From a virus (taxonomy: Duplodnaviria > Heunggongvirae > Uroviricota > Caudoviricetes), in the IMG/VR virus record IMGVR_UViG_2619619132_000004: a stretch of DNA of 19,407 nucleotides. One strand, written 5' to 3'. Made by a program: the position numbers and the translations under genes. Shown one piece after another: positions 1-19,108 of the stretch (position 1 is the stretch's first letter; the number at the start of each line of letters is the position of its first letter). The notes beneath the pieces were generated by a model. That model did not search any database. It was not told the origin of the DNA and saw only the letters and a program-made list of their open reading frames with translations.

Positions 1-199
1 CACCGTATACCTTGTGATTTTCATCGTATACGCGCTGTATCTCTTTCTTCAGCCAGTCATCGCGCTGCGCACGGGCACTGCGTTTATCCGGATGATGTCG
101 CTGTTGCTGACAGTGGTAATACGTTGACGGGGCAATATGTAGTTCACTGCATACCGGTCCGACCCCGTACAGCTTACGCAGCTTATCCAGCAGTGGCAT
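1..199 (-). CDS. IS3-family transposase OrfB, N-terminal fragment (continues beyond window)
   Basis: Minus-strand translation from ATG at 199: [66 protein letters not shown], typical IS3-family OrfB N-terminus. Start overlaps the orfA stop. Confidence 0.8.
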   Translation of the reverse strand, partial: MPLLDKLRKLYGVGPVCSELHIAPSTYYHCQQQRHHPDKRSARAQRDDWLKKEIQRVYDENHKVYG

Positions 200-525
200 C
201 ACTTTTTCCAGAGGCGGTCGAACTCCGCCTTCGCAAAATAAGCGGAAGCCTGGCGAAGGATATCGTTACTGCGGCGCAGTTCACGATTTTCACGTTCCAG
301 CTCTTTCAGACGCTGACGTTCAGCGGTGGTGAGCCCTCCATCACCGCCCCCGGTATCCCGCTCATGCTGGCGAACCCAGACACGCAGAGTCTCCGGCGTA
401 CAGCCAATCTTTGGAGCAATGGAACAAATTGTCGCCCATTGTGAGTCATATTCGCTCTGACTTTCCAGAACCATACGGACTGCCCGTTGACGGACTTCGG
501 GGGAAAAACGAGTATTTTTAGTCAT
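199..525 (-). CDS. IS3-family transposase OrfA (HTH plus leucine-zipper, 108 aa)
   Basis: ORF track protein [19 protein letters not shown]...[39 protein letters not shown], recognised as IS629/IS3-family OrfA. Confidence 0.85.
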
Positions 526-4685: not shown

Positions 4686-4860
4686 AATCTGTTCCGTTTG
4701 GCTTCCAGCGTCCTGCTGTTGAATTGAAGATGACCTAAGTTATCTGGTTGCGCAATAACTATATTTATCATTTTATGAAAAACGTTATAAATGACTGATA
4801 ACAAAAATATTTTATTTTTTGTGGTATCCGCGTGATATTTTCAAGGGGGAAAGGCTGATT
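4686..4860. promoter_or_regulatory. Probable PL/OL region and divergent promoter for the 4864..5085 ORF
   Basis: AT-rich interval upstream of nutL and N with GTTAT/ATAAC half-site dyads (4738..4760, 4786..4804) similar to those in the cI-cro intergenic region. Exact -35/-10 not assigned. Confidence 0.35.
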
Positions 4861-5945: not shown

Positions 5946-6055
5946 ACCTGTAATCTATAACCACGGTTATCAAAAGTAAAACAACAATTGTTATTGCTCT
6001 GGTGTATAACTCATGTTATTTTTGGTTATGCTTTATTTGCTGTAGAGGTATGCTC
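5946..6055. promoter_or_regulatory. OR operator / PR-PRM promoter region between cI and cro
   Basis: 110 bp divergent intergenic region with dyads ATAACCACGGTTAT (5957..5970) and AACAATTGTT (5983..5992) and a further GTTAT...GGTTAT element (6014..6028). Confidence 0.6.
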
Positions 6056-10844: not shown

Positions 10845-10984
10845 ATTCATTACGATATGGGAATTCCCATATCGGGTAAAAACGGTTTGCGGTAAAGCGA
10901 GAGTTAAGCAGAATTGCTGCGGGTGCTTGAGGCTGTCTGCCTCGGGCATGCCACCGTAAGGCAGACAGAGAAAAACCCCAGTTA

Positions 10985-11050
10985 ACATTACGCGTCCTGC
11001 AAGACGCCTAACATTAATCTGAGGCCAATTTCATGCTAGACACATGTAGG
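10985..11050 (-). ncRNA. Sok-like antisense RNA (type I antitoxin); approximate position
   Basis: Placed by analogy with hok/sok loci, antisense to the mok start and hok leader. Boundaries not determined from sequence. Confidence 0.35.
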
Positions 11051-11245
11051 TTAGCCTCTTACGCGCCGAAAGGCAAGGAGAAGCAGGCTATGAAGCAGCA
11101 AAAGGCGATGTTAGTCGCCCTGATCGTCATCTGTATTACCGTCGTAGTGACGGCACTGGTAACGAGGAAAGACCTCTGCGAGGTACGAATCCGAACCGGT
11201 CAGACGGAGGTTGCTGTCTTCACAGCTTACAAACCTGAGGAGTAA
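11033..11245 (+). CDS. mok-like overlapping reading frame (in frame with and containing hok)
   Basis: ORF track 11033..11245 begins upstream of hok in the same frame, as in hok/sok loci. Confidence 0.5.
   Translation: MLDTCRLASYAPKGKEKQAMKQQKAMLVALIVICITVVVTALVTRKDLCEVRIRTGQTEVAVFTAYKPEE
11090..11245 (+). CDS. hok: Hok/Gef-family type I toxin (51 aa)
   Basis: MKQQKAMLVALIVICITVVVTALVTRKDLCEVRIRTGQTEVAVFTAYKPEE matches Hok (transmembrane helix then RKxLCEVRIxxGxTEVAAF). Leader 10921..10968 resembles the R1 hok mRNA 5' end; the 5' element UGCGGGUG (10918..10925) is complementary to the 3' element CACCCGCA (11303..11310). Confidence 0.85.
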   Translation: MKQQKAMLVALIVICITVVVTALVTRKDLCEVRIRTGQTEVAVFTAYKPEE

Positions 11246-11652: not shown

Positions 11653-12138
11653 ATGGCTGAGATTGTTGAAGGAGTGCACTACCTTTCGTTTGATGATCTT
11701 ACCGAAATTAATCGCCTTTTAATTGAGCTTCAAACACCAGATGAACCTGTTAGTGTGCTGAGTGTTGATAATTTAAGTTCTTCTCAGTCTCGTCCCAGCA
11801 TGGTTCGATGGTATGAACAGACTAATGACATGTTTGTACTGGCATCAGTATTGATTGAAAGTCTGATTCAGAATCATCCATTTGCTAATGCAAACAAACG
11901 AACAGCTATGATGGCTGGTTATGTCTTCTTGTTGTTGAATGGCTATGAGTTAACAGCACCAGGCGATGAAATCGTGGAAATGGCAGAGGGACTGGCCTGC
12001 AAAACCTATACTCGAGAAGATCTCGAGAACTGGTTGTGTTATTGGTCTCGTGCGTATGACAGCCGGGAATTATGTAAAACAGGCGCAACTATTGTTTTGT
12101 ATGAAACTATCAAGCTTAAAATAGAACAGCAAAACTAA
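11653..12138 (+). CDS. Fic/Doc-family protein with Doc-type motif HPFANANKR (putative toxin, 162 aa)
   Basis: Motif HxFx(D/N)(A/G)NKR present as HPFANANKRTAMMAG; followed by a terminator at 12156..12178. Confidence 0.7.
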   Translation: MAEIVEGVHYLSFDDLTEINRLLIELQTPDEPVSVLSVDNLSSSQSRPSMVRWYEQTNDMFVLASVLIESLIQNHPFANANKRTAMMAGYVFLLLNGYELTAPGDEIVEMAEGLACKTYTREDLENWLCYWSRAYDSRELCKTGATIVLYETIKLKIEQQN

Positions 12139-12155
12139 AGGTGCTTCTAATGAAA

Positions 12156-12178
12156 ATCCGCTTCGGCGGGTTTTGTTG
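12156..12178 (+). terminator. Rho-independent terminator (CCGC-UUCG-GCGG then UUUUGUUG)
   Basis: Same stem-loop core as the hok terminator; lies between the convergent Doc-like gene and the HTH antitoxin gene. Confidence 0.65.
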
Positions 12179-12188
12179 TATTGGAGTA

Positions 12189-12506
12189 TCATGATATTAC
12201 TTGGATCCCGTTTTTCTCTACGACTGAAAGAAGGCGAAGAGCGGCACCTCCCGGCCGTTTTACACCACGTTCCCAGTCTGATATCAGGTTTTTACTGACG
12301 TTGAGGTATCTGGCAAAAACAGGTTGAGACAGATGCTCTCGTTCGCGCAGTGCACGGATCCTTTCCGGAGACATTACCGGCGCTGGCTGGAGACAAGTTT
12401 CATCGAATTCTCGCATAGTCTGTTTCGTTACTGCGCCGATATCATGAAGCGATTCCATCATTTCATGTACGGATGCAAGCGCATCACTGCGGTAATTTTT
12501 ACTCAT
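12189..12506 (-). CDS. HTH (XRE-like) antitoxin of a HigB-2/HigA-2-type toxin-antitoxin pair (105 aa)
   Basis: GGAGG RBS before ATG 12506; C-terminal HTH segment; immediately downstream of the toxin gene on the same strand. Confidence 0.65.
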   Translation of the reverse strand: MSKNYRSDALASVHEMMESLHDIGAVTKQTMREFDETCLQPAPVMSPERIRALREREHLSQPVFARYLNVSKNLISDWERGVKRPGGAALRLLSVVEKNGIQVIS

Positions 12507-12560
12507 TGGGTACCTCCGTAAACTGACCCTGTAGAATCAGTTGTGCCAGTTGTTCATCTG

Positions 12561-12869
12561 TTAGATTGAGTACGTGAGGAGCCCCTTCCGAAATGCACTT
12601 TCCTCAGTAGCGGTTATATTTTCACGTTCATTTTTTGCGTATGCATATACGAAAAAGGCCCTTGTGCCGACGCGATAGAAAATGATTGTGCGATAACCGC
12701 CAGATTTGCCGCCACCGACTCGTGGCAGACGTTGCTTGATAACGCCGTTACCCAGGTTTGCTGAGATAAGCCCGTTATCAGCCTGTTTAACAATTTCGCG
12801 CAGTGACTGGTCGGATATTTTGTTTTTGTGTGCAAATCGCTCAAACCAGGCGTTTTTAAAAATGCGCAT
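12561..12869 (-). CDS. RelE/HigB-2-like toxin (102 aa)
   Basis: Motifs GGGKSGGYRTIIFYR and FVYAYAKNERENI resemble Vibrio HigB-2 (GKRGGSRIIYYF...YGKNEMSDL); toxin-first operon order. Confidence 0.65.
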   Translation of the reverse strand: MRIFKNAWFERFAHKNKISDQSLREIVKQADNGLISANLGNGVIKQRLPRVGGGKSGGYRTIIFYRVGTRAFFVYAYAKNERENITATEESAFRKGLLTYSI

Positions 12870-12886
12870 TTTTTTGTTCCGTTATT

Positions 12887-12911
12887 AATGTATAACACAT
12901 AGTATTACATT
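12887..12911. promoter_or_regulatory. Inverted repeat AATGTA-N13-TACATT just upstream of the HigB-like toxin start; putative autoregulatory operator
   Basis: Perfect 6 bp arms seen in sequence, 18 bp upstream of the toxin ATG (12869). Confidence 0.4.
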
Positions 12912-12937
12912 GCGTAGGGATCTGCAATGCCATCAGT

Positions 12938-12967
12938 TTGACAACGTCGCGTATCCGGGATTATATT
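12938..12967 (+). promoter_or_regulatory. Sigma70-like promoter: TTGACA (12938..12943), 17-18 bp spacer, TTATAT/TATATT
   Basis: Consensus -35 hexamer and AT-rich -10 at canonical spacing. Confidence 0.5.
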
Positions 12968-12973
12968 CATCGC

Positions 12974-13056
12974 ACGCCAGCAAAATCTGGCGTCGGGATT
13001 AGGAACCCCGGATAGAAACCGCGACAGAGACACGCCGCGAGCGTGTTTTTTATTGT
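12974..13056 (+). ncRNA. Candidate small RNA or attenuated leader (about 80 nt) ending at an intrinsic terminator
   Basis: No ORF; 5' hairpin CGCCAG-CAAAAT-CTGGCG (12973..12990); terminator ACACGC-CGCGA-GCGTGT then U6 (13030..13051); downstream of the promoter at 12938. Confidence 0.4.
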
Positions 13057-13214
13057 CGTATGCACACGCACATCTGAATTATGGTGGGGCGTATAGGGGA
13101 GCTGAAAAGCTCGCCGGTTGGTTTCCCGGTAGTTCCTAACCCTGTACGTCTCGCCACCCGATGATTAGGAACCTGACGGTGGTGATAGTTTAGAAACCAC
13201 TCGAGGGCGTCATT

Positions 13215-13886
13215 ATGACAACTCAAGTTTCTGTTGAAACACTCTCCACGATTACTTACAAGCAGATCCCCGTTATCACTACCGAACTTTTGGCGCACCT
13301 TTACGGCACAGAAGCTATTCGTATTCGCCAGAATCACCACGAAAACAAAGGTCGTTTCATTGAGGAAAAACACTTCTTCAAACTTGAAGGTGAAACTTTA
13401 CGTGAGTTCAAGCACAGAGTAGCTTTTAACTACTCTGTGAAAATTGCCCGTAACGTTCGCTCCCTCATCCTATGGACAGAACGCGGCGCAGCCCGTCACG
13501 CAAAAATGCTCGAAACTGATCAGGCGTGGGAGGTATTCGAAAAACTGGAAGACTGCTATTTCAGCCAGGGAAAAACAGCACCAACCGAACAGCAGCCGCA
13601 GATTCAGCCACAATTCACAGCCGAAGAAATCATCCTCCTTTGCTACATGCAGCTCTGGATGGAAAAAGCCCAGGACCTCAGCAAACACCTGTATCCCATT
13701 ATGAAAGAGCTGAACTCCTCATACACGAACAAGCTGTATGACATTGCGTTTGAGACCATCTACATGGTGACGAAGAACAGAGACGCGCTACTAAGGGAGG
13801 TAACACGTCTCGACATGTCAAGTTCCATTATCCAGCGGGCCATGCCAATGCTGAAAAGCCTGCGGGCAAGACAATTTGAATTCTGA
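13215..13886 (+). CDS. ORF6N-domain antirepressor-like protein (223 aa)
   Basis: GAGGG RBS; N-terminal region resembles ORF6N/Ant-type antirepressors of lambdoid prophages; own terminator downstream. Confidence 0.6.
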   Translation: MTTQVSVETLSTITYKQIPVITTELLAHLYGTEAIRIRQNHHENKGRFIEEKHFFKLEGETLREFKHRVAFNYSVKIARNVRSLILWTERGAARHAKMLETDQAWEVFEKLEDCYFSQGKTAPTEQQPQIQPQFTAEEIILLCYMQLWMEKAQDLSKHLYPIMKELNSSYTNKLYDIAFETIYMVTKNRDALLREVTRLDMSSSIIQRAMPMLKSLRARQFEF

Positions 13887-13890
13887 AACT

Positions 13891-13915
13891 AAAGGAGCTT
13901 CGGCTCCTTTTTTGT
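13891..13915 (+). terminator. Rho-independent terminator (GGAGC-UUCG-GCUCC then U7)
   Basis: Perfect stem with UUCG tetraloop and T-run. Confidence 0.8.
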
Positions 13916-13940
13916 TGGGAAAATCCAGTGAGAGGGAATA

Positions 13941-14351
13941 ATGAACCAGACTATCTTCCTCCGAAGTAAGCAGCAGCAACAATTTGCCATTAACGCCATC
14001 CTTGCAACAACTCTCGATAAAGACAAACCCGTTACGATCCGCATCACCGATTACAAGCGGAATCTCGATCAAAATGCCAAATTTCACGCGATGGTCGCTG
14101 ATATCTCCCGACAGGTTCAGTGGTGCGGCAGATGGCTAAAACCAGAACAGTGGAAAGTTTTGTTAATCAGCGGACATGCCGTGGCTACAAAACAGGAAGC
14201 TGATGTTTTGCCAGGTCTTGAAGGTGAATACGTCAATATCCGCGAAAGCAGTGCGCAGATGAGCGTGAAGCGTATGGCAAGCCTGATTGAGTACACAACT
14301 TCCTGGGCTGTGGAGCAGGGTGTCAGATTTACCGACAGGAGGTATGAATGA
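13941..14351 (+). CDS. ninB: NinB recombination protein
   Basis: Similarity to lambda NinB ([25 protein letters not shown] versus lambda LDQNRKLWACLGDVSRQVEWHGRWL). Confidence 0.8.
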
Positions 14352-14539
14352 GACGACAGCGACGAAGCATTACCGATATAGTCTGTGAAAACTGCAATTA
14401 CCTTCCAACGAAACGCTCCCGAAATAAACCCAGGCCAATCCCCAACGAATCTGATGTAAAAACCTTCAATTATACGTCTCACCTGTGGGATGTCCGGTGG
14501 CTCAGACGTCGTGCAAGATTTAATAGTCACTCCGGATAG
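14348..14539 (+). CDS. ninE: NinE-like protein (63 aa)
   Basis: [27 protein letters not shown]...; start overlaps the ninB stop (ATGA); position as in lambda and DLP12 nin regions. Confidence 0.6.
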
Positions 14540-16851: not shown

Positions 16852-17114
16852 TATCCGTTCAACGGGAATGTTACATACCTCACAATTAAGTCAGTTGAAT
16901 GTTGTCTGCCCGGATGAGAATTTGTTAGAAAAAACTGCATGGTGAATCCCCCTGAGCGGAGGGGCGACTGGTGACGGTATAATCTCTGATTATCAAAACG
17001 AGAATGACGCGGGTTTAGTGGCACCGGGCTGAACTCACCGGGAGGCACCCGGCACCATGCAATGGCACATAGCGCCACTCTCCAGCCCCTCTCCGGAGGG
17101 GCTTTCTTATGGAC

Positions 17115-17335: not shown

Positions 17336-19108
17336 ATGGCATTTAAACACTATGATGTTGTCAGGGCGGCGTCGCCGTCAGACCTTGCGAAACGAATAAC
17401 TCAAAAACTGAAGGAAGGGGGGCAGCCTTATGGTAGTGCGCTGATTTCGACAGCTGGTTATGGTGCGGAGTTCATCCAGCCAGTTGTGAGTGAGGGGAGC
17501 ATCTCATCACCAGAGGAGCCAGGCAACCGTCCGACGACCTCAGCGCCTTCTGTTGCGCCAGAATATTACTATGTGATCGCGCTTGCTGGTCAGTCCAATG
17601 GTATGTCATACGGTGAGGGACTGCCATTACCGGATACATTCGACAGCCCTGATCCACGTATTAAACAGTTAGCGCGTCGCAGTACGGTGACACCGGGCGG
17701 TGCAGCATGCAAATATAACGACATCATTCCGGCGGACCATTGTCTGCATGATGTGCAGGACATGAGCCGTCTTAACCATCCGAAAGCGGACCTGTCAAAG
17801 GGGCAGTACGGAACCGTGGGGCAGGGGCTGCATATCGCCAAAAAACTGCTGCCGTTTATACCGGCGAATGCGGGCATTCTGCTGGTTCCGTGCTGTCGTG
17901 GTGGTTCAGCGTTCACCACCGGAGCTGATGGCACATACAGTGACGCGAGTGGCGCCTCGGAGAATTCAACCCGCTGGGGTGTGGACAAGCCGCTGTATAA
18001 GGACCTTATCGGTCGAACAAAAGCGGCACTGGAGAAGAACCCGAAAAATGTGCTGTTTGCCGTGGTGTGGATGCAGGGGGAATTTGATTTTGGCGGTACG
18101 CCGGCAAATCATGCCGCACAGTTTGGTGCGCTGGTTGATAAATTCCGTGCAGACCTGGCGGATATGGCAGGCCAGTGCGTCGGTGGCTCTGCTGGCGGTG
18201 TTCCCTGGATATGCGGGGACACGACGTATTTCTGGAAGCAGAAGAACGAATCCACGTACCAGACGGTGTACGGCAGCTATAAAAATAAAACGGAAAAGAA
18301 TATCCATTTCGTACCGTTCATGACCGATGAGAACGGGGTGAATGTGCCGACGAACAAACCGGAAGAAGACCCGGACATTCCGGGTATCGGTTATTACGGT
18401 TCGAAATGGCGTGACAGCTCAGCCACCTGGACGTCACAGGACAGGGCGAGCCATTTCAGTTCATGGGCTCGCCGTGGGATTATTTCCGACCGTCTGGCAA
18501 CGGCGATTCTGAGCTGCGCGGGTAAGTCTTCTGCGTTTGTTAATGGTACTGCCGGGGTGGTTGTTCCAGACAGACCGGTTACCACCTCAGAGTCTGTAAT
18601 TTTTTACGATGCCAAAAAAGCTACAGACAATCAGCTGAAACCCTATGGCTGGGACGGTGTGTATGGCAGGCGCACACTGGTTGATGACAGCGGCAATAAA
18701 GCTCTGCGAATTGAGAAAAATAACAGCGCGAAATCCTGGTCAATGTACTGTGATATTGCTGCAGACAAGGCAAAACTTTTACTGGAAAAAGGCGGGGAAA
18801 TTGCTGTCCGGTTTAAAATCCCCGAAAACGTCAATCTTGAGACAACCAGAAACAAGTATGCCTTTGGTTTGTACTGGCGAATAGCGGAATGGCCGGGTGA
18901 GGGTGGTGAAGGCCATCTGAGTTCTTTCTTTGTCCAGACAGATAAAGCCAGTATTAATGTTGCATACCATCATACAGTTAATCAACAAAAAGAACTTGGC
19001 ACGTTTGGCGCATTCGACCATGACTGGCATACGCTTGCATTTAAATTTAAGGGCAGTAACAGCATTAATGAACCGCCCCGGGTTTCCTGGAGAGTGTTTT
19101 ATCTGTGA
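17336..19108 (+). CDS. NanS-p-like SGNH/SASA-family sialate O-acetylesterase, 3'-truncated by IS insertion
   Basis: GGGAGG RBS; GQSN motif (IALAGQSNGMSYGEG) typical of SASA/SGNH esterases; position downstream of Q as for nanS-p in Stx-type prophages. The last 13 codons and the stop lie inside the IS that begins at 19069. Confidence 0.65.
   Translation: MAFKHYDVVRAASPSDLAKRITQKLKEGGQPYGSALISTAGYGAEFIQPVVSEGSISSPEEPGNRPTTSAPSVAPEYYYVIALAGQSNGMSYGEGLPLPDTFDSPDPRIKQLARRSTVTPGGAACKYNDIIPADHCLHDVQDMSRLNHPKADLSKGQYGTVGQGLHIAKKLLPFIPANAGILLVPCCRGGSAFTTGADGTYSDASGASENSTRWGVDKPLYKDLIGRTKAALEKNPKNVLFAVVWMQGEFDFGGTPANHAAQFGALVDKFRADLADMAGQCVGGSAGGVPWICGDTTYFWKQKNESTYQTVYGSYKNKTEKNIHFVPFMTDENGVNVPTNKPEEDPDIPGIGYYGSKWRDSSATWTSQDRASHFSSWARRGIISDRLATAILSCAGKSSAFVNGTAGVVVPDRPVTTSESVIFYDAKKATDNQLKPYGWDGVYGRRTLVDDSGNKALRIEKNNSAKSWSMYCDIAADKAKLLLEKGGEIAVRFKIPENVNLETTRNKYAFGLYWRIAEWPGEGGEGHLSSFFVQTDKASINVAYHHTVNQQKELGTFGAFDHDWHTLAFKFKGSNSINEPPRVSWRVFYL

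Follow-up and report, generated by a model that had tools for sequence, protein, structure and literature searches.

What is a near-consensus promoter doing in front of a phage antirepressor gene when most of what it transcribes would be a short RNA ending at an intrinsic terminator? The original prediction treated this promoter, its hairpin and its terminator as an orphan unit; they prove instead to be the front end of an operon-like IsrK-C4-ant module. Together with the leader of ant, the interval 12974..13161 reproduces an already known type of phage switch made up of two RNAs, the IsrK decoy and the tRNA-like antisense RNA C4. For the locus as a whole we consider it very probable that it constitutes an RNA-based immunity module of the immI type, comprising IsrK, C4, the target sites and ant, of a lambdoid Escherichia coli prophage, in which C4 blocks the translation of ant and IsrK titrates C4. 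Modules of this kind are already known from P1/P7 and Gifsy-1, and the finding of an sRNA and its antisense partner is real but ordinary. The elements of the module, numbered from the first nucleotide of the window (the whole 19,407-nucleotide stretch of DNA that was analysed), are the following.

12938..12967, + strand: predicted sigma-70 promoter (-35 TTGACA at 12938..12943, 18-bp spacer, -10 TATATT at 12962..12967)
12974..13051, + strand: predicted IsrK sRNA of about 78 nt, with hairpin 1 (12974..12993), hairpin 2 (12994..13010) and an intrinsic terminator (13026..13051)
12999..13006, + strand: a1 target (UUAGGAAC), in the loop of IsrK hairpin 2 and the core of the first GATTAGGAACC repeat
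13015..13021, + strand: b1 target (GAAACCG), in the single-stranded IsrK linker and complementary to the b' loop
13077..13161, + strand: C4-type antisense RNA element (Rfam RF01695, clan CL00128), 85 nt, structured
13081..13164, + strand: 27-codon ORF whose start is the conserved AUG in the 5' strand of C4; corresponds in position to Gifsy-1 orf45
13119..13125, + strand: b' antisense (UGGUUUC), in the loop of C4 hairpin 2 and complementary to b1 and b2
13132..13139, + strand: a' antisense (GUUCCUAA), in the single-stranded C4 junction and 100% complementary to a1 and a2
13165..13172, + strand: a2 target (UUAGGAAC), in the ant leader 4 nt past the C4 element and the core of the second GATTAGGAACC repeat
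13178..13185, + strand: GGUGGUGA arm, complementary to 13151..13158, which is the 3' strand of the basal stem of C4
13193..13199, + strand: b2 target (GAAACCA), about 3-4 nt 5' of the ant Shine-Dalgarno and 15 nt before the start codon
13203..13207, + strand: ant Shine-Dalgarno GAGGG
13215..13886, + strand: ant, a 223-aa antirepressor-type protein with ORF6N and P22_AR_C domains, the regulated cargo
13891..13918, + strand: intrinsic terminator closing the module (terminator scan, 8-bp stem; stem 13891..13910, then a T run)

The elements first described for this interval are all where they had been placed: TTGACA at 12938..12943, TTATAT/TATATT at 12961..12967, ACACGCCGCGAGCGTGTTTTTT at 13030..13051, GATTAGGAACC at 12997 and 13163, and the inverted copy GTTCCTAA at 13132..13139. 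The promoter scan ranked TTGACA-18-TATATT (11/12 matches) as the top site within 12000..14500, and TTGAC plus a -10 hexamer is kept in all 16 homologues. Both hexamers and their spacing are identical to those of Gifsy-1 PisrK, the +1 of which lies at the homologous A by the nucleotide numbering of the published locus (PMC4825925); the predicted start of transcription in the window is A12974. The RNA that would begin there matches the Rfam isrK model (RF01394) over its full length, positions 1-77 of 77, with 69.2 bits against a gathering score of 50, and folds into two hairpins and a terminator at -27.3 kcal/mol (z = -2.9). Its 5' hairpin, originally given as 12973..12990, is present and slightly longer than supposed, with arms at 12974..12980 and 12987..12993, and compensatory changes occur in six of its seven pairs among 16 homologues. 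According to RNAfold the terminator (ACACGCCGCGAGCGTGTTTTTT, 13030..13051) is a 10-bp stem running into the U tract; its absence from the + strand list of the terminator scan would be explained by the extension of the stem, which absorbs the T run. A minus-strand candidate from the same scan, 13040..13019, is taken as chance. The related c4-a1b1 motif (RF03163) falls just short of its gathering score at 12961..13014 (44.0 bits against 46.7), where the element passes as isrK; homologues score from 32.7 to 51 bits and only some of them reach the threshold. C4 lies 25 nt and ant 163 nt downstream of IsrK, and a1:a' and b1:b' pairing is present. Of the two possibilities once offered for this transcript, an sRNA of about 80 nt or a terminated leader, both appear to hold: the sequence supports an RNA of about 78 nt that is at once an sRNA and the terminated leader of the antirepressor gene, a role shown by experiment for the Gifsy-1 isrK ortholog (PMC4825925). 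Hfq binding and the activation of ant translation in trans by IsrK are established for Gifsy-1 only (PMC4825925).

The second RNA of the module, C4, matches RF01695 along the entire model (positions 1-87 of 87) with 66 bits against a gathering score of 45. It folds at -43.8 kcal/mol (z = -5.0), and its basal stem is 99.6% paired, with compensatory change in 9 pairs. Mature C4 is predicted to span 13083..13158, a 76-nt RNA with a tRNA-like stem and a 3' ACC, the two ends being taken from the alignment columns of the P1 c4 feature. Hartmann et al. in 1995 are said to have found that RNase P cuts C4 from the operon transcript, and in the window such processing would fall at 13082/13083. A tRNA/tmRNA scan of the window returned no match, and hence the tRNA-like C4 is not a tRNA gene. 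The original prediction mentioned neither this 85-nt structured RNA (13077..13161) nor the b1/b'/b2 set.

Six short sites link the two RNAs to the ant leader. Each antisense site has one upstream and one downstream target, the a duplexes being of 8 bp and the b duplexes of 7 bp, and in the window all four targets are perfectly complementary to a' and b'. In the predicted folds a1 and b' are in loops, and a', b1 and a2 are single-stranded (b' and a' by the minimum-energy fold). An independent repeat search recovered the GATTAGGAACC repeat and both inverted relations, along with a second set formed by TAGAAACC at 13013 and 13191 and by TGGTTTC at 13119..13125, complementary to 13193..13199. Exact copies of GATTAGGAACC number only two in the whole window (12997 and 13163); with at most one mismatch there are three, where 0.25 are expected and none of 200 shuffles reaches three.

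The sites are conserved as partners. Across homologues a1 and a' are paired in 92.9% of cells, six of the seven pairs show compensatory change, and the covariation score reaches 0.679, where shuffles give 0.147 and slid controls 0.03-0.16. Since indels put homologous sites into different columns, MAFFT column covariation was dropped for a2 and the b sites, which were assessed by per-genome complementarity searches and by matrices of cognate and non-cognate pairs. Within each set, a or b, the three copies change together in 16 phages and in 105 modules from viral contigs, and the covariation of b1 with b' and b2 is seen in 17 phage modules. A match of at least 7 bp to the cognate a' or b' was found in the 105 IMG/VR modules for a1 in 95, a2 in 102, b1 in 88 and b2 in 98, compared with 13-16% of non-cognate pairs. 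Of 14 cases, C4 pairs best with its own leader in 13 and with its own IsrK in all 14, with mean pairing energies for the leader targets of -20.8 kcal/mol (cognate) and -12.8 kcal/mol (non-cognate). In the 105 viral modules the a site has about 23 alleles and the b site about 66, and 76 combinations of the two occur; VT2-Sakai shares its b allele with the window but has another a allele. That a1 and b1 are conserved as strict mimics of a2 and b2 supports IsrK as a decoy. The position of a1 is homologous to P1 a1 and to the Gifsy-1 positions G28/G31, and a2 occupies the same place relative to C4 as does P1 a2. The distance from the end of b2 to the start codon ranges from -3 to 16 nt in homologues, usually with overlap of the Shine-Dalgarno; in the window b2 adjoins the Shine-Dalgarno without overlapping it and the 15-nt gap is among the two largest (Sakai, 16 nt), so that direct occlusion is less certain there.

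A further conserved feature surrounds a2. The helix between 13151..13158 and 13178..13185 is 98.4% paired, with compensatory pairs at four of eight positions in 16 modules, and among 95 distinct modules most have the GGUGGUGA arm at a fixed offset of 16-22 nt. Pairing of this arm with the C4 stem strand could give an alternative helix that holds a2 in its loop. The decoy/antisense model does not account for this helix.

The regulated gene follows 54 nt after the end of the C4 element, with no icd-like ORF between them. Its product carries the ORF6N (PF10543, 1e-19) and P22_AR_C (PF10548, 2e-7) domains and shares 61% identity with Gifsy-1 AnrP over the N-terminal 149 aa; similarity to P1 Ant1 was sought and none was found. 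The matches to isrK, C4 and c4-a1b1 stand in the order of P1 and Gifsy-1, directly 5' of this ORF6N/P22_AR_C antirepressor gene, and 14 further phages have the same tandem 5' of antirepressor genes. The Gifsy-1 isrK locus is 77% identical in nucleotides to that of the window, the substitutions being concentrated in the six pairing sites. An O104:H4 genome has the module 100% conserved, and 22 records have it at at least 99% identity. Of 5426 complete E. coli genomes, 735 contain close relatives; E. coli genomes hold up to 4 modules, and some viral contigs bear 2-3 tandem modules with differing alleles. In the window the module sits beside a RelE/HTH toxin-antitoxin pair in the nin region, upstream of ninB.

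How would such a module work? Transcription from the sigma-70 promoter (12938..12967) would begin near 12974 and in the majority of cases end at the intrinsic terminator, yielding the 78-nt IsrK with a1 in a hairpin loop and b1 in the linker. Read-through RNA would contain C4 which, by analogy with P1, would be excised as a tRNA-like RNA of about 76 nt, displaying b' in a loop and a' single-stranded; the ant leader left behind would have a2 and b2 just 5' of its Shine-Dalgarno. Pairing of C4 with a2 and b2 would leave ant untranslated and the prophage repressor, whose identity as the target of Ant we infer, would stay active. IsrK, as an exact mimic of a2/b2, would compete for a' and b', whether C4 is free or still part of the unprocessed transcript, and when abundant it would turn ant translation on.

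The two halves of this scheme come from different phages. In the GenBank record of P1, a2 and b2 are annotated as C4 targets through which icd/ant translation is repressed. In Gifsy-1, IsrK supplied in trans activates anrP via the a1:a' pairs (translation up 139-fold, a transcriptional fusion up 8-fold) and induces the prophage, and induction requires PisrK (PMC4825925). The pairs G28-C162 and G31-C159 were verified there by the compensatory mutants G28A/C162U and G31A/C159U (PMC4825925), and these positions map to a1 and a'. We infer that P1 repression and Gifsy-1 activation are manifestations of one decoy/antisense circuit, which would operate in the prophage of the window as well. One Gifsy-1 observation counts against titration: constitutive expression of STnc1160, the C4 region, raised the toxicity of IsrK instead of lowering it (PMC4825925). 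A more ambitious reading, which we offer tentatively and regard as possible but not probable, would make P1 C4 repression and Gifsy-1 IsrK activation the halves of a single three-RNA circuit with IsrK as a dedicated C4 decoy, the independently varying a and b sites as a combinatorial address, and the helix 13151..13158/13178..13185 as a gate on C4 maturation or on the presentation of a2. If this were true, lambdoid and Stx prophages that reside together would have their antirepressor control insulated from one another, or selectively cross-wired, by the a/b address.

The strongest competitor to the decoy/antisense reading is the model of the Gifsy-1 authors, who attributed activation to a structural switch in cis and orf45-anrP translational coupling, not to titration of a processed C4 (PMC4825925). 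Applied strictly to the window, it would have the read-through RNA inactive with a1 paired in cis with a', IsrK in trans opening the ribosome binding site of the ORF that overlaps C4, translation coupled into ant, and C4 never acting as a free repressor. Direct genetics and native gels in Gifsy-1 speak for it (PMC4825925), and the window and Gifsy-1 have in common the promoter, the IsrK scaffold, the terminator, the AUGGUGG start and the context of the ant start. But the 27-codon ORF of the window ends at 13164; the ant ATG (13215) is 50 nt further on, with several in-frame stops between, and ATGA-type coupling cannot occur. Among homologues the ORF from the conserved AUG runs from 8 to more than 64 codons, with unrelated C-termini; because of this variable length, orf45-type coupling is not conserved across the family. 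The model also leaves unexplained why a2/b2 co-vary with a'/b' and why b2 is always found next to the ribosome binding site of whichever gene comes first. We consider it unlikely for the window. The ORF itself, a truncated positional counterpart of orf45, is probably not a gene, and a coding explanation for 13077..13161 was rejected on the same range of ORF lengths; the original statement that the unit had no ORF is true of the short RNA, and this non-conserved frame overlaps C4.

Less probable still is a control resembling that of P4, in which C4 acting on nascent a1/b1 would modulate termination at the IsrK terminator or beyond it, setting the read-through into ant instead of, or besides, blocking translation. 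The end of b1 is 4 nt 5' of the terminator stem, and the dependence of ant transcription on icd translation in P1 was counted in favour of such control. So were the analogy with P4 CI and seqA/seqC, raised by the Gifsy-1 authors, and the 8-fold rise of the anrP transcriptional fusion with IsrK in trans (PMC4825925). Against this, the translational effect in Gifsy-1 was far larger (139-fold against 8-fold; PMC4825925), no feature is more conserved than the placement of b2 at the ribosome binding site, and no anti-terminator alternative was seen in the fold.

That the GATTAGGAACC copies might be DNA sites for a protein (CI, Cro or the HTH antitoxin), as the original prediction supposed in proposing an unidentified regulator, seems to us scarcely credible. 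Two exact 11-mers and an inverted copy inside 180 bp do exceed chance, but all lie 3' of the transcription start, in or beside structured RNAs (+26 to +226 of the transcript), the inverted one in a single-stranded region of C4, and the three co-vary. Their sequence changes completely between homologues, and RNA complementarity is kept in every homologue examined, which identifies the repeats as RNA-RNA pairing sites and not as protein binding sites. They have no likeness to the prophage's CI operators (ATAAC-N4-GTTAT, 5957..6019 and 4730..4788); no LexA box was found near the promoter, window-wide matches being at chance level, and the only CI operator match at the promoter, with 2 mismatches (12892..12905), is 33 bp 5' of the -35 and nearer to the toxin-antitoxin promoter. 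Equally implausible is a decayed, non-functional immI remnant in a defective prophage, to which the truncated orf45 and a b2-to-ATG gap among the longest might point, given the four perfect targets, the near-consensus promoter, the intact ant ORF with both its domains and the conservation in E. coli genomes described above.

The module would decide whether the prophage antirepressor is made and thus bears on spontaneous induction; close relatives are carried by Stx-converting phages and by the O104:H4 outbreak lineage, and there the release of toxin is driven by induction. The literature was searched for an experimental study of the module in E. coli or Stx prophages and none was found. RefSeq has no annotation in the interval, and in several GenBank phage records spurious ORFs are annotated across the module RNAs, so that recognition of the module corrects the annotation. 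The scientific gain beyond P1 and Gifsy-1 is little; its modest additions are that orf45 coupling is not family-wide, that a1/b1 mimicry fits an IsrK decoy, and that there is an extra conserved helix around a2.

Among known systems, the APSE phages of Hamiltonella have the same isrK and C4 tandem as the window, two ncRNAs with a'/b' regions 5' of an antirepressor-like gene, but with a BRO-N cargo domain and other alleles; a1/b1 inside IsrK were not recognised there (Rouil et al. 2020, PMC7313666). The P4 CI RNA with seqA/seqC is a structural analogue according to the Gifsy-1 authors, being likewise a processed antisense RNA between an upstream and a downstream copy of its target (PMC4825925); unlike the translational block proposed for the window, it acts by transcription termination on replication genes. 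The Gifsy-1 locus is laid out as PisrK-isrK-orf45/STnc1160-anrP-isrJ (Hershko-Shalev et al. 2016, PMC4825925), and the window shares its promoter hexamers and spacing, IsrK scaffold, terminator, C4-like element, ant start context and ORF6N antirepressor. The two differ in their a/b specificity (UUAGGAAC/GAAACC in the window, UUGGCGU/UCACCG in Gifsy-1) and in orf45, whose stop overlaps the ant start in Gifsy-1 and whose counterpart in the window is shortened to 27 codons, without coupling to ant. The window also has a plain terminator in place of a downstream isrJ, and its module is in the nin region upstream of ninB rather than 3' of Q. The immI operon of P1/P7, reportedly the subject of work by Citron & Schuster in 1990 and 1992, has the layout P51a/b - a1 b1 - c4 - a2 b2 - icd - ant1/ant2. 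P1 differs in that its promoter has an operator (Op51), whereas that of the window has no recognisable one; the window lacks icd, with ant directly next, and its Ant has no sequence relationship to Ant1. The module of the window is carried by a lambdoid prophage, that of P1/P7 by a plasmid prophage. In common with P1/P7 immI, the window has the order of elements, the C4 fold with b' in the loop of hairpin 2 and a' in the junction, a2 immediately 3' of C4, b2 at or near the ribosome binding site of the gene that follows first, and a terminator-like hairpin after b1.

The element upstream of the antirepressor gene belongs to a family that is already known and curated and whose type of mechanism is known, and is in that sense an ordinary finding. 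When the whole window was scanned with Rfam at curated thresholds, two matches fell in this interval: isrK (RF01394) at 12974..13051 (69.2 bits; gathering score 50) and the C4 antisense RNA (RF01695) at 13077..13161 (66 bits; gathering score 45). An additional permissive scan gave c4-a1b1 (RF03163, "a1, b1 targets of C4") at 12961..13014, which overlaps isrK and, at 44 bits, lies below 46.7. The gene at 13215..13886 encodes an antirepressor-type product with ORF6N and P22_AR_C domains. The original prediction of a small RNA or a terminated leader is supported. The window is a lambdoid E. coli prophage whose cI, cro, cII, replication genes, nin region and Q match a prophage of O104:H4 2011C-3493 at 99.6%, and RefSeq carries no annotation from the RelE-family toxin gene to the ORF6N gene.

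Rfam also matched elements elsewhere in the window. The sok antitoxin RNA (10921..11095; 110 bits) lies in a hok/sok toxin-antitoxin region, and hokD is annotated at the corresponding place of the matching O104:H4 prophage. A full-length STnc100 sRNA (16909..17114; 165 bits) precedes a 590-aa ORF (17336..19108), where the prophage may have its late-promoter leader region. An ALIL pseudoknot (128..244, minus strand; 116 bits) indicates an IS element at the window's left end, ALIL being a frameshift element of IS3-family insertion sequences.

The signals that had been read from the sequence were found in their predicted places. The predicted promoter consists of TTGACA (12938..12943), an 18-bp spacer and TATATT (12962..12967), and with 11/12 matches it was the top promoter-like site of 12000..14500 in a promoter scan; the 5' hairpin is formed by arms 12974..12980 and 12987..12993, and the terminator, a hairpin followed by a U tract, ends at 13051. 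The direct repeat GATTAGGAACC lies at 12997 and 13163 and its inverted copy GTTCCTAA at 13132; with at most one mismatch the 11-mer occurs 3 times in the window vs 0.25 expected, a number that 0 of 200 shuffles reached. A repeat finder, run independently, returned the same direct and inverted relations, together with features that had been overlooked: a second repeat set, TAGAAACC at 13013 and 13191, and TGGTTTC at 13119..13125, complementary to 13193..13199. Also overlooked was a very stable 85-nt structure at 13077..13161 (-43.8 kcal/mol, z = -5.0), which lies downstream of the terminator and ahead of the second repeat.

Two further observations concern the promoter region. The spacer sequence TATCCGGGATT (12952..12962) is complementary to 13004..13014, on the 3' side of IsrK hairpin 2, and TATCCGGG is kept in the promoters of homologues; this complementarity would be relevant only if transcripts come from upstream, for example when antiterminated PR transcription crosses the nin region. 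The interval that separates the isrK promoter from the RelE-family toxin gene (12561..12869, minus strand) holds a short inverted repeat, AATGTA-N13-TACATT (12886..12912). It may be an operator of the divergent toxin/HTH-antitoxin operon, and a CI operator consensus with 2 mismatches lies within it at 12892..12905.

In the nomenclature of P1, the pairing sites of the window, listed with the Shine-Dalgarno sequence after b2, are:

12999..13006, a1, UUAGGAAC, loop of IsrK hairpin 2
13015..13021, b1, GAAACCG, IsrK linker
13119..13125, b', UGGUUUC, loop of C4 hairpin 2
13132..13139, a', GUUCCUAA, single-stranded junction of C4
13165..13172, a2, UUAGGAAC, ant leader
13193..13199, b2, GAAACCA, ant leader
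13203..13207, Shine-Dalgarno GAGGG, 3' of b2 and followed by the ATG at 13215

The repeats had been proposed as protein binding sites, a reading that their behavior among homologues does not bear out. We fetched 14 further phage loci with the isrK-C4 tandem (Stx phages; Yersinia, Klebsiella and APSE phages), and in 14/14 the a and b sites differ in sequence, yet complementarity is kept by the three copies of each set, as in these examples:

VT2-Sakai: a' ACGCCAA; a1 and a2 TTGGCGT
phi346: a' GTTCGAA; a1 and a2 TTCGAAC
PhiR5_2: a' GTGCTAA; a1 and a2 TTAGCAC; b' TGTTTCGA; b1 and b2 TCGAAACG
P1: a' CTGTCAA; a1 and a2 TTGACAG

When duplex energies were computed for each C4 against every target set, the cognate leader was best in 13/14 cases and the cognate IsrK in 14/14, with means for leader targets of -20.8 kcal/mol (cognate) vs -12.8 (non-cognate). 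In a 16-sequence alignment the a1:a' helix has 92.9% of cells paired, compensatory change in 6/7 pairs, and a covariation score of 0.679, where shuffles score 0.147 and slid controls 0.03-0.16; the helices that form within IsrK and within C4 show 93.8% pairing and 20 compensatory pairs. From IMG/VR, a pattern scan collected 105 modules, carrying some 23 alleles of a, some 66 of b and 76 combinations of the two, in which the cognate a'/b' match reaches at least 7 bp for a1 in 95, a2 in 102, b1 in 88 and b2 in 98, vs 13-16% of non-cognate pairs. Because the copies stay complementary, cognate pairing is best and covariation extends across homologues, the repeats are, on this comparative sequence evidence, RNA-RNA recognition sites and not protein operators.

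A CI operator or a LexA box was rejected as the identity of the repeats, which resemble neither, this prophage's own CI operators having been compared. Those operators, OL and OR, are likely the two triplets of ATAAC-N4-GTTAT palindromes that flank cI at 4730..4788 and 5957..6019; with at most 2 mismatches this motif has 16 matches in the window vs 7 expected.

A further helix may involve a2. At 13178..13185, GGUGGUGA is complementary to the 3' strand of the basal stem of C4 (13151..13158); the helix predicted from this would hold a2 in its loop and could not coexist with the C4 fold. In 16 modules it is 98.4% paired with compensatory change in 4/8 pairs, and most of 95 distinct modules have a counterpart at a fixed offset (16-22 nt). 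We did not find this conserved alternative helix in published models of the module; in Gifsy-1 the region lies outside the 180-nt RNA studied (PMC4825925).

Homologous loci are widespread: of 5426 complete E. coli genomes, 735 have near-identical or related modules (up to 4 each), as do 280 phage records, for the most part Stx-converting phages. The isrK and C4 pair is already annotated in APSE phage records, and c4 and c4-a1b1 were given as motifs by Weinberg et al. (2010); a literature search found no experimental study of the module in E. coli or Stx prophages. RefSeq E. coli genomes leave the IsrK/C4 region without annotation, and GenBank phage records place protein-coding genes over these RNAs (a hypothetical protein, an 'Icd-like' protein, an over-long Ant CDS; loci L003 1291..1464, L008 1264..1398, L015 912..1934, L004 1183..1422), which are probably annotation artefacts. 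Some IMG/VR viral contigs have tandem arrays of two or three complete promoter-IsrK-C4-ant modules with a 656-nt period (L052 at 4678 and 5337; L054 at 3666 and 4322; L086 at 1545, 2201 and 2857, minus strand). Since each tandem copy has its own a/b alleles, such arrays suggest several independently addressed antirepressors in one phage.

In the mechanism that we propose, the short IsrK would be the main product of the promoter, and read-through RNA would give C4 (13083..13158, as predicted when the ends of P1 c4 are aligned to the window) and the ant mRNA. C4 would pair with a2 and b2 beside the ribosome binding site and keep this mRNA silent, until IsrK, an exact target mimic, titrated a'/b' and released ant. 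We infer this decoy step, which gains its main new support from the strict conservation of a1/b1 as mimics. Against the scheme, b2 of the window adjoins the Shine-Dalgarno sequence without overlapping it and lies 15 nt from the ATG, one of the two longest such distances among homologues (Sakai, 16 nt).

In P1, C4 reportedly represses icd/ant via a2/b2, a result credited to Citron & Schuster (1990 and 1992). Rfam detects the same three families there as in the window; the P1 record has the order promoters P51a/b, a1, b1, c4 RNA, a2, b2, icd, ant1/2, and its GenBank annotation labels a2/b2 as C4 targets, repressing icd/ant translation.

In Gifsy-1, Rfam finds isrK, C4 and isrJ around anrP. Its alignment to the window (77% identity; Gifsy-1 +1 being window 12974 in the numbering of Hershko-Shalev et al., PMC4825925) concentrates the differences in six short sites, and leaves the promoter hexamers, IsrK scaffold, terminator, C4 stems and ant start context in common. 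The compensatory pairs G28-C162 and G31-C159 of that study map to P1-style a1 and a'. There, anrP is transcribed from the isrK promoter as a translationally silent mRNA, its translation rises 139-fold with IsrK in trans, read-through transcript gives the processed RNA STnc1160, and PisrK is required for induction (PMC4825925). Constitutive STnc1160, however, gave no relief of toxicity (PMC4825925), which counts against silencing by C4 and its release by a decoy. In Gifsy-1, orf45 begins at the conserved AUG of the 5' strand of C4, and its ATGA end lies at the anrP start. Judging from the reading frames, translational coupling through this ORF cannot be the general mechanism, because the ORF from this AUG ranges from 8 to more than 64 codons among homologues with unrelated sequences, nor can it operate in the window, where the frame is 27 codons long and terminates at 13164, leaving 50 nt to the ant ATG in which further in-frame stops lie. 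What all homologues have kept is the position of b2, which abuts or overlaps the first downstream gene's ribosome binding site.
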